Shown here one piece after another: positions 3,018 through 34,458 of a stretch of DNA of 64,000 nt (the first letter of the stretch is position 1; the number at the start of each line of letters is the position of its first letter). The notes under the pieces are model-generated. The model was not told where the DNA came from, did not search any database, and worked only from the letters and a program-made list of their open reading frames with translations. The stretch lies in NCBI RefSeq assembly GCF_053078305.1, contig NZ_CP166879.1. One strand, given 5' to 3'. Made by a program: the position numbers and the translations under genes.

Positions 3018-3244
3018 CCGCGCAGAATAACGTATAGAAAATTAAAAGTATAATTTTTATTTTGTATGTATTATCTTCGATACATTCACCAGACTTATTA
3101 TCATTTCAGAGGAATTATTTGATTAAGGTTTTACTTAAGGCGTAACAAATGATATTTATCGGCTAACTGAACTTCTCCTTTAGGATGTTTTCACTCCCCG
3201 AAATGGGGATAAAAGGCAAATAAAATAACTAAAGGATTTATTCA

Positions 3245-29159: not shown

Positions 29160-30701
29160 TTACTCTTCGTTCTTCTTCTGACTCAGACCATATTCCCGCA
29201 ACTTATTGGCAATCGCGGTATGTGAAACGCCGAGACGTTTTGCCAGTTTGCGCGTGCTGGGATAATTGCGATAAAGCTGAGTTAATACCGAGCGTTCAAA
29301 ACGGCTGGTAATTTCGTCCAGCGAACCTTCCATCGCATCTTCGCCCACGGCTACCGTTGCGGCGTCATAATCCGGCAACAAAATATCCTGTGGACGCAGC
29401 TCATAACCGTCCAGTTGTGTCAGTGCGCGATAGATAGCGTTCTTTAACTGCCGCACATTTCCCGGCCACGCATAACGCGTAAGTACAGTATTCAGGTCAG
29501 CGGCCAGTTTCGGACGCGGCACGCCCTGCTCGTCGGCAAAGCGGGCGACGAACAGCTCAGTTAACGGCATGATGTCCTGCGGACAGTCACGTAGCGGTGG
29601 CAGATTGAGCGTCAACACGTTCAGACGATAATAGAGATCTTCACGGAACATGCCTTTTTGCACCAGTTCGACCAGATTCTTCTGCGTAGCGCAAATCACC
29701 CGCACATCGACATGCACCTCATGGTCTTCGCCAACCCGACGGAAAGTGCCATCATTAAGAAAACGCAGTAATTTCGCCTGCATCCGTGGTGACATCTCAC
29801 CTATTTCATCCAACAGCACCGAACCACCGTTCGCCTGCTCAAAGAATCCTTTCTTCCCTTCCGGAGCATGACCAAACAGCTCACTCTCGACCGCATCTTC
29901 CGGTATAGACGCACAGTTCAGCGCCAGGTAAGGTTTGCTCGCTCTTGGGCTTGCCTGATGGCAGGCGTAGGCAAAGAGATCTTTACCTGTACCTGTGTCA
30001 CCCGTAATCAGCAGCGGCGCGCTTAGCATCGCCAGTTTCTGCGCCTGTTCGACAACATGCTTCATTTTCGGGCTGACAGCGACAATTTGACTGAAGGCGC
30101 TGACGTCCTGGGCGGCGACATTTTGCAACTGGCGGCCCATACGAATCGTTGATCGCAACATCACCACCGCACCTGTCAGGACGTGTTGATCATTTTCATC
30201 CTGAAGATAAACAGGCGTAATCTCCATCAGGAAGTTCTGTCCATTAATAACAACATGCTCGTTATGCGAATCTTGCGGTTCGCTTTCCAGCCAACGTAAA
30301 AAATTAAAGCCGTTAATCAATTGTGCGGCGGTATGGTTGCGCAGGCGATCCAATTTTTGCCCAAAAAGCTGACAGCTCGCTGGGTTCGCCATATCCACTT
30401 TGCTTTTCATATCGACAGAGAGCACAGGTTCGGGCAACGCCTCCAGTAACGCGCTCAACGCCAGATGCTCACGTTCGGAAGGCATCCACGGGACAGTACG
30501 CACATCGGTAACACCTGCAATACGGCGTATTTCGGCCATCAGACTGCTGAAACTCTCAAACTCCAGTTCAGCAAAATTGAGGTAGATTCGCCCAATGGGG
30601 TCAATTTCAATACCGCGTAAATCAATGCCTCTTAGCACGAGTAGATCGAGTAATTCGCGGGTCAGACCGAGTCGGTCTTCACAAAAGACTTCCAGACGCA
30701 T
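29160..30701 (-). CDS. tyrR: Transcriptional regulator TyrR (AAA+ domain with C-terminal HTH), 513 aa
   Basis: Walker A GDTGTGKD with no GAFTGA motif, and a C-terminal HTH. Start at MRLEVFCEDRLGL. Confidence 0.9.
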   Translation of the reverse strand: MRLEVFCEDRLGLTRELLDLLVLRGIDLRGIEIDPIGRIYLNFAELEFESFSSLMAEIRRIAGVTDVRTVPWMPSEREHLALSALLEALPEPVLSVDMKSKVDMANPASCQLFGQKLDRLRNHTAAQLINGFNFLRWLESEPQDSHNEHVVINGQNFLMEITPVYLQDENDQHVLTGAVVMLRSTIRMGRQLQNVAAQDVSAFSQIVAVSPKMKHVVEQAQKLAMLSAPLLITGDTGTGKDLFAYACHQASPRASKPYLALNCASIPEDAVESELFGHAPEGKKGFFEQANGGSVLLDEIGEMSPRMQAKLLRFLNDGTFRRVGEDHEVHVDVRVICATQKNLVELVQKGMFREDLYYRLNVLTLNLPPLRDCPQDIMPLTELFVARFADEQGVPRPKLAADLNTVLTRYAWPGNVRQLKNAIYRALTQLDGYELRPQDILLPDYDAATVAVGEDAMEGSLDEITSRFERSVLTQLYRNYPSTRKLAKRLGVSHTAIANKLREYGLSQKKNEE

Positions 30702-30771
30702 GGGAACCTTCACCTGAAAAAAGAACAATTAATATGATGATATGACACTATTTGGATAGCAGGAAGGTTTC

Positions 30772-30789
30772 TGTCAACAATCATTGACA
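30772..30789. promoter_or_regulatory. TyrR-box-like palindrome upstream of tyrR
   Basis: TGTCAA-N6-TTGACA resembles the TyrR box consensus TGTAAA-N6-TTTACA and lies about 70-90 bp upstream of the tyrR start. Confidence 0.3.
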
Positions 30790-30848
30790 CAAAGACGGAA
30801 AAACGGGCACTTCGGCGTAAAGATATCCGGTCAGCACCCGATATTGCA

Positions 30849-31910
30849 TTATTTTTCGCTGGGCGTTTTGCCTTTTTGCAGCGTTTCTTTCACCTGACCG
30901 ATAAGCTGACGACGGAAATCCCCGAGGCGAGGTTTGTCATCGTCAATCCACGGCAGCGGGCGGCAAAGCTCCATAGCTTTAATCCCGAGTCGTGCCGTCA
31001 GAAGCCCAGCACCAATCCCCTGAGCTGCGCGGGTAGACAAACGAGCAGCGAGATCTTGCGACATCCAGTCCATCCCCACTTCGCGCACCAATTCGCTGGC
31101 TCCGGCGAAAGCGATATTCAGCAATACCAGCTTGAACAGGCGCAAACGGCTGTAATATCCCAGTTCAATGCCATACAGCGTGGCGATGCGATTAATCAAA
31201 CGCAGATTGCGCCAGGCGATAAATGCCATATCCACCAGCGCCAGCGGGCTGACCGCAATCATCAACGTTGATTCCGCTGCCGAACGGCTGATTTCGCGCC
31301 GCGCCTGGGCATCTAAAACTGGCTGGACCAAATGCGCATACAAACTGACCACTTCACGGTCGTTTTGCGTTTCATGGATTGAGGCATACCAGCGTTGCAG
31401 CGCCGGATGTGACTGATCGATGCCCGCCTGCTGCGCCAGTTTTTCGCAAAATGCGCGGCCTTTGCCGGTTCCGTGGCTATGCAATAAATCACGCGCTTCG
31501 TCGCGTTCATGGGCGCGCTGTCGCAAGCGCCATAAGCGCCGCCACTCTGTTACCACAGAACCTACGCCAGCGCCGATAATCAATGCCCCAGCGGCACATC
31601 CACCCAGCGCCACCCAGTCCTGAGTTTGCCAGGCATTCATTGTCCACTGTATACCCTGCCCGACAACGCTTGCGCCAAACAGAGCCAGCCCGCCCATCAC
31701 CATTTTGCGCCACAGGCTGCGTTTCGGACGTAACGCTGCGTCCATTACCGCTTCGACTTGCCCCTCTTCTTCCTGCGCTTCGTCGAGCGTGGCCGGGGCA
31801 AAATTTTGCGCCTGATTTTCGTCAAAGGTCTGCTGCGCCCTGAATTTAGGATTCTGATCGACCTCCAGAGGACCGTCGAAATCAATACGTGGTTTTAACG
31901 GTTCGGTCAT
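30849..31910 (-). CDS. ycjF: Inner-membrane protein YcjF (DUF697/UPF0283), 353 aa
   Basis: Central transmembrane segments. Start overlaps the ycjX stop (ATGA). Confidence 0.85.
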
Positions 31911-33304
31911 CGCAATTTATCTCCTATTAAAAATTCCAGCGCAGCATCAAGACGAATATGCGGCAGCGGTTTGTCGACATCCATCACCTGCGGGCGAAAC
32001 GCTTCAAACTGGAACCCTTGCTTGTCCCAGAACGCCTGACCGGGCAAACGCGCAGGAACTTCACCGGGGTAAACGGTGAGAGGCGCACCATCGCTAAGTC
32101 GATTACCGCGCAGCGCCGGGATTTTCTCACCGTTAACATCAATAATGCCACTGGTGGTCGCCTGAACTGACGCCAACCCCAGGCAATCCATGCTGATCCC
32201 TTCGAACGCCGCATTTTGCCAGGCATCCTGAATTAGTTGTTGCAGCAATGAAACCATATTGGCGTGCTGATCAATGGTCACATGGTCCGCTTTAGTGGCA
32301 GCAAACAATAGCTTATCGATAACCGGCGAAAACAAACGCCTGAACAGGGTACGCTGCCCATAGTGGAAACTTTGCATCAGCTGCGTCAGCGCCAGACGCA
32401 TATCATTAAATGCCTGTGGCCCACTGTTGAGAGGTTGCAGGCAATCCACCAGCACAATCTGGCGGTCAAAGCGCAGAAAATGATTCTTATAGAACCCCTT
32501 CACCACCTTCTCGCAATAATAATTAAAGCGCTCGCGCAGCATTCCGGCATTGGTATGCTTATCGGCCTGCGCGAGTTTGGACTCGCCCCAGACATCGACA
32601 TCCGGCCACGGGAAGAATTGCAGCGCGGGCGCACCTGCCATATCCCCCGGCAAGACAAAGCGCCCAGGCTGAATAAAGTGCAGCCCCTGCTGTTTACAGT
32701 GGTGGAGATAATCGGTCCACGCGGCGGCAATGTCTGCCAGCCGGTTTTCGTCGGCAGGCGCTAGCGGGTCCAGCCCTTCGCACATCATTCGCCATTTCGC
32801 CGACCATTCGCCACGCTGACCATTGAGTAAGCCCGTCATCTGGCGCGACCAGCTTAAATAGTCCTGCGCCAGCATCGGCAGGTCGAGCAACCATTCGCCA
32901 GGGTAATCCACAATCTCCAGATACAGCGTGGAGGTATCCTTAAAGTGGCGTAGCAGCGAATCGTTCGATTTAAAACGTAGCGCCAGGCGAATTTCGCTGA
33001 CGCCGCGCGTTGGCGTTGGCCAGGCAGGTGGATCGCCATATAACTGCGCCAGCCCTTCATCATAGGTGAAGCGCGGAATGCCAAAGTCACGCTGGGGAAT
33101 GCGTTTTACGCCCAGCAGCCGTTCTTCACGCACCGCGCTTAACAGCGGCAAGCGTGCTCCGGCGTGAATATTGAGCAACTGATTGACCATCGCAGTGATA
33201 AACGCCGTTTTGCCGCTGCGGCTAAGTCCGGTTACGGCGAGGCGCAGATGTCTGTCGACACCCCGATTCACCAGCGCATTGAGTTCATTTTTAAGTCGCT
33301 TCAT
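31907..33304 (-). CDS. ycjX: P-loop NTPase YcjX (DUF463), 465 aa
   Basis: Walker A GLSRSGKT. Confidence 0.85.
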
Positions 33305-33358
33305 TGCTGTCCTGTGCTGCTCTGAAGACCAGAAAAAAAATCATTCGTAAGGATATGA

Positions 33359-33386
33359 ATGTGGGGGCCAGGCCATTGATTATCAA
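33359..33386 (-). promoter_or_regulatory. Candidate sigma32 (heat-shock) promoter for ycjX-ycjF
   Basis: Minus strand reads TTGATAA, a 12-nt spacer, then CCCCCACAT, resembling the sigma32 consensus CTTGAAA-N13-15-CCCCATNT. It lies about 55 bp upstream of the ycjX ATG. Confidence 0.4.
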
Positions 33387-33459
33387 CTGCCCGTGTTGTC
33401 ATCGACGGGCGAACTCCATAAGATGTGCAGCATTCACGTTCGGACGGAGTTCCTGACCT

Positions 33460-34458
33460 ATGTCCCCTACTATTTATGATATTGCCAGGGTTGCAGGCGT
33501 ATCAAAATCCACCGTATCACGCGTGCTGAATAAGCAAACCAATATCTCCCCGGAAGCGCGCGAAAAAGTGTTACGGGCCATTGAAGAATTACAGTATCAA
33601 CCAAACAAGCTGGCCCGCGCGCTGACCTCTTCGGGTTTTGATGCCATTATGGTGATTTCTACCCGTTCGACCAAAACTACGGCGGGTAATCCGTTTTTCT
33701 CTGAAGTTTTGCATGCCATCACCGCCAAAGCTGAAGAAGAAGGTTTCGACGTGATATTGCAGACGTCGCACAACCTGGCAGAAGACTTACAAAAATGTGA
33801 AAGCAAAATTAAGCAGAAAATGATTAAAGGCATAATTATGCTAAGCTCACCTGCTGATGAATCGTTTTTTGCGCAACTCGATAAATACGATATTCCGGTG
33901 GTGGTGATTGGCAAAGTTGAAGGTCAATATGCCCATGTTTATTCTGTCGATACCGATAATTTTGGCGACAGCATTGCGTTGACCGATGCGTTAATTGAAA
34001 GTGGACATCAAAATATTGCCTGTCTGCATGCACCGCTTGATGTCCATGTTTCAGTGGATCGGGTAAATGGTTATAAGCAGAGTCTGGAAGATCATAATAT
34101 TGCAGTGCGTGATGAATGGATTGTTGATGGCGGTTATACCCATGAAACAGCACTGCAAGCAGCACGGCAATTATTAAGTCAGTCACCGTTGCCTGAGGCA
34201 GTGTTTGCCACTGACAGCCTGAAATTAATGAGCATTTATCGTGCAGCGGCAGAGAAAAACATTGCTATTCCGCATCAGTTAGCGGTGGTGGGTTATAGTA
34301 ATGAAACGCTGTCGTTTATATTAACGCCTGCACCGGGCGGCATCGATGTTCCGACGCAGGAGTTAGGTCAACAAAGCTGCGAGTTATTATTCCGCTTAAT
34401 TTCTGGAAAACCGTCACCACAGAATATTACCGTTGCCACGCATATGTCGTTGAAATAA
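33460..34458 (+). CDS. ycjW: LacI-family transcriptional regulator YcjW, 332 aa
   Basis: N-terminal LacI HTH ([20 protein letters not shown]) and a periplasmic-binding-protein-like effector domain. Confidence 0.85.

Follow-up and report, generated by a model that had tools for sequence, protein, structure and literature searches.

The minus-strand element at positions 33359 to 33386 of the window, by which we mean the whole 64,000-nucleotide stretch of DNA analysed here, can be identified with high confidence as ycjXp, the sigma-32 (RpoH) dependent promoter of the Escherichia coli ycjX-ycjF(-tyrR) operon. The element itself, its start site, occupancy by sigma-32, heat induction and conservation are each documented either by the sequence or by published data. 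The promoter is not new: a curated entry, a mapped start and measured sigma-32 occupancy are already on record. Taken as a promoter call, ycjXp matters little, and its residual value is that of a pointer to ycjXF. The points that are mildly new are limited to the clade-restricted occurrence of the sigma-32 boxes and a two-allele polymorphism within E. coli.

The promoter element and its surroundings

The window is part of an E. coli chromosome. When 801 nt round the site were used as query, 5416 of 5426 complete E. coli genomes gave a match, the closest being O145:H28 at 99.6%. Between the start codons of ycjW and ycjX lies a 155-nt spacer (33305..33459) that differs from its K-12 MG1655 counterpart by a single base, a substitution that lies 17 nt upstream of the -35 box and outside the element. 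The sequence at the element is the same as in K-12, and data obtained in K-12 therefore transfer directly. The ycjXp of RegulonDB and EcoCyc occupies the same locus, with an identical promoter, the same start (K-12 coordinate 1384070, window position 33351) and the same downstream genes. Coordinates were converted as K-12 coordinate = 1384117 + (33304 - x), where x is the position in the window. The features of the region are these:

33359..33386, minus strand: ycjXp, the whole sigma-32 promoter element, TTGATAA-N12-CCCCCACAT (from the sequence; same as K-12; equal to the promoter string for ycjX in the S7 table of PMC4488433)
33381..33386, minus strand: -35 hexamer TTGATA, 5/6 to TTGAAA
33359..33366, minus strand: -10 octamer CCCCACAT, 6/7 of the specified positions of CCCCATNT, with one extra C ahead at 33367
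33351..33352, minus strand: transcription start, +1 C at 33351 and -1 C at 33352 (S7 table of PMC4488433)
33305..33351, minus strand: 47-nt 5' leader, with a T8 run at 33331..33338 and the Shine-Dalgarno sequence AGGA at 33310..33313
31907..33304, minus strand: ycjX, a P-loop (Ras-like) GTPase of the YcjX/DUF463 family (Pfam, Walker A motif and PDB matches)
30849..31910, minus strand: ycjF, a DUF697 inner-membrane protein (PF05128, E = 1.2e-55; K-12 annotation)
29160..30701, minus strand: tyrR, third gene of the ycjXF-tyrR unit (K-12 annotation mapped to the window; RegulonDB unit via PMC3041696)
33460..34458, plus strand: ycjW, the divergent neighbour
33396..33424, plus strand: candidate divergent sigma-70-type promoter for ycjW, TTGTCA-N17-TAAGAT (consensus scan only)

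Read on the minus strand, the site runs GGGCAG TTGATAA TCAATGGCCTGG CCCCCACAT TCATATCC, with TTGATAA at 33386..33380, the 12-nt spacer TCAATGGCCTGG at 33379..33368 and CCCCCACAT at 33367..33359; direct reading of the sequence thus reproduces exactly the position and composition given in the preliminary description. The published sigma-32 consensus is CNCTTGAAA-N13-14-CCCCATNT, with TTGAAA as the -35 core and a spacing of 13-14, up to 15 nt. The best parse of the site against this consensus is TTGATA-N14-CCCCACAT, which agrees at 11 of 13 specified positions and has one mismatch in each half. Like the classical sigma-32 promoters (the dnaK, groES, htpG, clpB and ibpA class), ycjXp has two boxes, a 14-nt spacing and a run of C before the -10. 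Unlike them, it carries a mismatch in both boxes (TTGATA; CCCCACAT with C for T) and lacks the upstream C-N-C, the residues preceding TTGATA being CAG.

Consensus counting alone does not place the element above chance. With at most two mismatches allowed, the 64-kb window contains 3 sites with a 14-nt spacer, 2 with a 13-nt spacer and none with a 15-nt spacer, where shuffled sequence leads one to expect about 1.9, 2.0 and 2.1, that is, five sites found against about six expected. The other four matches all fall within long ORFs, and the match at ycjXp is the sole intergenic one; it is oriented correctly, and its -10 ends 54 nt ahead of the ycjX start codon. Because consensus counting failed, position, conservation among orthologues and published data were used instead. 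Once conservation is counted, the element stands well above chance.

The genes downstream are an overlapping pair encoding a P-loop protein and a membrane protein, as had been described from the sequence at the outset. The ycjX product matches PF04317 with E = 3e-181 over residues 20-464, so that the family profile is matched full-length; its Walker A motif, GLSRSGKT, is intact at residues 26-33, and it matches the solved Shewanella YcjX structures 6nz4, 6nz5 and 6nz6 with E = 1e-123. YcjF contains two strongly hydrophobic 19-residue windows with Kyte-Doolittle means of 1.85-1.88, and the start of ycjF overlaps the stop of ycjX by 4 nt (ATGA). Products of this kind, a GTPase and a membrane protein, set ycjXp apart from the classical class, whose products are chaperones and proteases. 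The preliminary description had further held the biochemical role of the pair to be unknown. This needs amendment insofar as YcjX structures have been solved (PDB 6NZ4, 6NZ5, 6NZ6) and the protein is described there as a Ras-like GTP-binding stress protein; it holds for the physiological role of YcjX and YcjF, which, together with any link to Psp, the literature still describes as unknown.

A search of the minus strand in the ycjF-tyrR spacer (30702..30848) found no terminator-like site. This spacer does contain an inverted repeat, TGTGTCAATGATTGTTGACA, whose form suits a TyrR box and which we regard as a candidate. A published RpoE-holoenzyme SELEX peak is also listed between ycjF and tyrR. 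On the other side of the element, the candidate ycjW promoter and ycjXp face away from each other, their -35 boxes 9 nt apart, and the TAAGAT block of the former is common, by alignment, to ycjW-bearing loci of other genera.

Transcription start and sigma-32 dependence

In a published 5' RNA-seq table (PMC4488433), the promoter string given for ycjX is ggcagttgataatcaatggcctggcccccacattcatatcCtta, with +1 at 1384070 (+), -47 from the gene. The 5'-triphosphate reads at this position number 47 and 41 (94% and 80%), in data from late stationary phase at normal temperature, which prove the start and not which sigma factor uses it (PMC4488433). Carried over to the window, the start lies at 33351, 47 nt before the ycjX ATG and 8 nt past the last T of the -10 box. 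The preliminary description had staked its reading on a transcription start aligned with this element, and the published triphosphate start bears it out.

Ends at -1 (33352) are sensitive to NrnB and carry a 5'-OH, indicating primer-dependent initiation in late stationary phase (PMC4488433). As a separate observation, approximately 76% of all ycjX 5' ends in that phase lie one base upstream of +1 and are oligoRNase-sensitive (PMC4488433); ycjXp is thus among the few E. coli promoters reported with a 5'-CC primer.

Binding of sigma-32 at this site in vivo has been measured in two ChIP-chip studies. A low-background re-analysis of sigma-32 ChIP-chip gives log2 2.9 at ycjX, a value that ties with dnaK as the highest among previously reported sigma-32 sites in Table 2 of that paper; according to the same paper, Wade 2006 had detected the ycjX target as well, as had Nonaka 2006 or Zhao 2005. 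RegulonDB, by the account in PMC3041696 that refers to Nonaka 2006, gives ycjX-ycjF-tyrR a sigma-32 promoter and marks the unit as verified by experiment. After a heat upshift in chemostat culture, ycjX and ycjF belong to the early, sharp and transient responders, together with dnaKJ, groESL, ibpA and clpB, and both genes rise together with ibpAB in phiX174 infection. In its ChIP signal, equal to that of dnaK, and in its early and transient heat response, ycjXp again resembles the classical promoters. The initial reading of a sigma-32-type promoter ahead of ycjX-ycjF is accordingly supported by the published start, ChIP occupancy, heat response and RegulonDB listing, and the dependence on rpoH that it presupposed is addressed by occupancy, heat induction and a regulon membership known at second hand.

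A mechanism can be proposed on these grounds. RNA polymerase carrying sigma-32 would bind two boxes 14 nt apart, TTGATA at -35 and the C-rich CCCCACAT at -10, and transcription would begin at the C at 33351, giving an unstructured 47-nt leader. Next would come ycjX (GTPase) and ycjF (membrane protein), coupled in translation, and then read-through into tyrR. A rise in sigma-32 after heat or protein-folding stress would lead to quick, transient induction of the operon, like that of classical chaperone genes. The element alone would probably account for the heat induction, and its boxes would be both necessary and sufficient. Basal transcription presumably uses the same start, and some division of basal work between sigma-32 and sigma-70 would be expected.

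That last point bears on the alternative that survives best, although we judge it improbable: that the site works chiefly as a weak sigma-70 (or sigma-S) promoter sharing the -35 TTGATA and using CACATT (33363..33358) as its -10, with the sigma-32 resemblance secondary. On this view, the mapped start would be a product of housekeeping or stationary-phase transcription. The arrangement TTGATA-N17-CACATT does place the observed start 7 nt past the hexamer, and the start was mapped in late stationary phase without heat shock. An alternative E. coli allele, described below, reads as a better sigma-70 promoter (TTGATA-N16-CATTAT, 9/12). SELEX lists are known to miss sites. The ycjW/ycjX spacer is absent from the list of in vitro sites obtained by genomic SELEX with RpoH holoenzyme, which is a point for the alternative and a further difference from the classical class. 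The title of Wade 2006 speaks of extensive functional overlap between sigma factors. Against these points, CACATT agrees with TATAAT at only 3/6 positions (keeping A2 and T6) and was not flagged in a sigma-70 scan, the sigma-32 ChIP signal reaches the level of dnaK, the heat response is sharp, transient and chaperone-like, and the block CCCCAT, for which sigma-70 has no use, is kept across genera. Use of ycjXp by sigma-70 most likely adds basal activity to the sigma-32 promoter rather than replacing it, and a minor contribution of this kind is plausible.

Conservation of the boxes and readings of the leader

We collected 80 YcjX loci, one genome per species, from Enterobacterales, Vibrionaceae, Aeromonas and Pasteurellaceae. 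The genes ycjX and ycjF are adjacent in all 80, and the usual order, by tblastn synteny, is pspF | pspABC(D)(E)-ycjX-ycjF-tyrR-tpx-ycjG. Upstream sequences were scored against TTGAAA-N13-15-CCCCATNT in a 31-nt slot in which the -10 ends 35-65 nt before the ATG. A score of at least 10/13 was reached in 20 of 81 upstream sequences and at least 11/13 in 8 of 81, counts that do not represent independent events, as the sequences are related. Dinucleotide shuffles of the same regions gave 1.07 +/- 0.92 (maximum 4) at the lower threshold and 0.12 at the higher, while control slots gave 1 and 1 at neighbouring offsets and 1 on the reverse strand.

Nearly all positives come from Enterobacteriaceae in which the gap measures 76 nt or more, and belong to Escherichia, Citrobacter, Enterobacter, Pluralibacter, Pseudocitrobacter, Phytobacter and RIT691. 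Outside this family, matches occur in Moellerella, one Photorhabdus and one Aliivibrio, and may be due to chance. In alignment, the TTGATAA and CCCCAT blocks stand out from a mean column identity of 43%. In two alignments TTGATAA shows no variation among the rows for Escherichia, Citrobacter, Enterobacter and Phytobacter, and a CCCCAT-type block lies at the same offset in other Enterobacteriaceae; a GC-rich hairpin ending the psp genes is often found ahead of the boxes. Related though the sequences are, their flanks have drifted so far apart that the boxes can be read as footprints.

Of 5426 E. coli genomes, 5042 carry the ycjW-linked allele with its 66-nt promoter region, which is identical in 3175 of them and variant in 1867. 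In 4998 of these 5042 genomes the 32-nt core (33357..33388) shows no change. Four variants were sampled; their changes affect sequence ahead of the -35, the stretch from the -10 to the start, the early leader and a single spacer position, and both boxes are unchanged in all four.

These results decide against a second alternative, according to which the motif arose by chance and heat induction of ycjXF comes from elsewhere, for example from TTGATA-N18-TATCAT in the ycjW coding region (33505..33476). In its favour are the number of sites of such quality expected in the window, as counted above, and the 10/12 match of a sigma-70-like site upstream on the same strand. But the site at 33505..33476 sits in coding sequence and has no start-site support, whereas the motif is followed after 8 nt by a triphosphate start, recurs at the same offset in many genera despite low flank identity, and keeps its core in E. 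coli while the flanks vary. We consider this alternative extremely unlikely and, given the start-site and conservation data, effectively refuted.

A third alternative places heat control after transcription, with a constitutive ycjXp and an RNA thermometer (fourU or ROSE type) in the leader, where the U-run would pair with AGGA. The AGGA lies 5 nt before the ATG, a U8 run lies upstream of it, and UUCUG could pair with CAGGA. A U-run together with AGGA is a pattern that resembles fourU thermometers. The minimum free energy of the leader fold, at -6.4 kcal/mol, is higher than expected (z = +1.32; in 188 of 200 shuffles the fold was no less stable), the ribosome-binding site is unpaired in both the minimum free energy and the centroid structures, an Rfam search of the leader matched no family, and the heat response is visible at the mRNA level; with no stable hairpin to hide the ribosome-binding site, we reject the thermometer as scarcely credible. 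The length of the U-run also speaks against it, since it is polymorphic in E. coli: T8 in the window, T7 in strain CUVET19-1942 and T5 in GF4-3.

Two further candidates were discarded. The first is an operator for YcjW, a protein of LacI type, at the perfect 11-bp palindrome TTGAT-A-ATCAA (TTGATAATCAA; 33376..33386, minus strand) that overlaps the -35. This palindrome is common to ycjW-carrying Enterobacter loci and is represented in E. albertii by the near-palindrome TTGATAAATCAA, so that it is only partly conserved. It lacks the central CG of LacI-family operators, and the operator reading is unsupported. Published YcjW ChIP-seq peaks lie at ycjM and ycjT/U; the ycjW-ycjX spacer has no reported peak. 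The second is a terminator or attenuator hairpin, CATTC-N10-GAATG followed by the T8 run, which was rejected after an empty terminator scan; the hairpin is not present in the RNA, because the mapped start is downstream of its 5' arm.

Psp linkage and two alleles within E. coli

The ycjX-ycjF pair of the window is the same as that in the pspABC(D)-ycjXF arrangement of Yersinia and many gamma-proteobacteria. The psp-ycjXF operon of Yersinia is presumably under sigma-54/PspF control. That ycjXF accompanies the psp operon in Yersinia is described in the literature. In psp-linked species, ycjX starts within pspD or pspC or a few nucleotides after them, and a sigma-32-like motif is lacking, whereas ycjXF in the window is separated from psp by the ycjM-ompG-ycjW island and has its own promoter. 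In 16 Enterobacterales loci the pspD frame reaches about 20-26 nt into ycjX, and some of the other loci have a gap of less than 90 nt. The overlapping loci, among them those of Yersinia, Serratia, Rahnella, Tatumella, Proteus, Morganella and Rosenbergiella, are:

around the ycjX start: 16 pspD-overlap loci, L024, L028, L030, L033, L035, L038, L045, L050, L051, L053, L054, L056 (3990..4020), L058, L059, L063 and L080

No sigma-32-like motif was found in these 16 loci except in Moellerella, where an 11/13 match lies inside pspD. The overrun of pspD suggests an operon fusion, in which translation of ycjXF may be coupled to that of the psp operon.

A second arrangement also occurs within E. coli. 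In 343 genomes, pspE lies directly upstream of ycjX, and the ycjM-ompG-ycjW island is absent. This allele has a terminator-like hairpin followed by the sigma-70-like TTGATA-N16-CATTAT mentioned above; its match to the sigma-32 consensus is only 10/13, with the C-run down to CCCA. The segments concerned are:

L087 (strain 118UI), 3084..3201: pspE-linked allele, counterpart of window 33305..33459
L003, 3882..4000: counterpart of the same segment

Among complete E. coli genomes the ycjW-linked allele, with the strong CCCCCACAT, accounts for about 93% and the pspE-linked allele for about 6%. E. albertii has the same pspE-linked type, and Enterobacter cloacae, which carries ycjW, has the TTGATAATCAA-type allele found in the window.

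The distribution can be read as lineage-specific rewiring, in which the sigma-32 promoter may have moved ycjXF from membrane-stress to heat-shock control. Ancestrally, ycjXF may have been fused to the end of the psp operon, as is seen in most Enterobacterales, Vibrionaceae and Aeromonas, and a subset of Enterobacteriaceae may then have gained a terminator and a sigma-32 promoter in a gap of 110-155 nt. The pspE-linked allele may have weaker heat inducibility or none, and if so, ycjXF would be naturally polymorphic for heat induction. We put forward this reading as a whole, a clade-specific gain of sigma-32 control together with a difference in heat induction between the two E. coli alleles, tentatively and as rather doubtful.

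In broader terms, ycjXF is a widely conserved pair of a GTPase and a membrane protein under stress control, through sigma-32 here and through linkage to the psp operon elsewhere. From clade to clade, and possibly from one E. coli lineage to another, the gene pair stays intact while its regulatory input changes. Such a switch points to membrane stress as well as protein-folding stress for phenotype screens of ycjXF.

The placement of the island also varies in Citrobacter. In Citrobacter FP75 (L029) and C. werkmanii (L057), the order over positions -2640 to 0 of ycjX is ompG, ycjW, pspE, ycjX, so that the sugar-utilisation island lies upstream of pspE, whereas in E. coli K-12 it lies between pspE and ycjX. 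This difference suggests independent or shifted insertion points.
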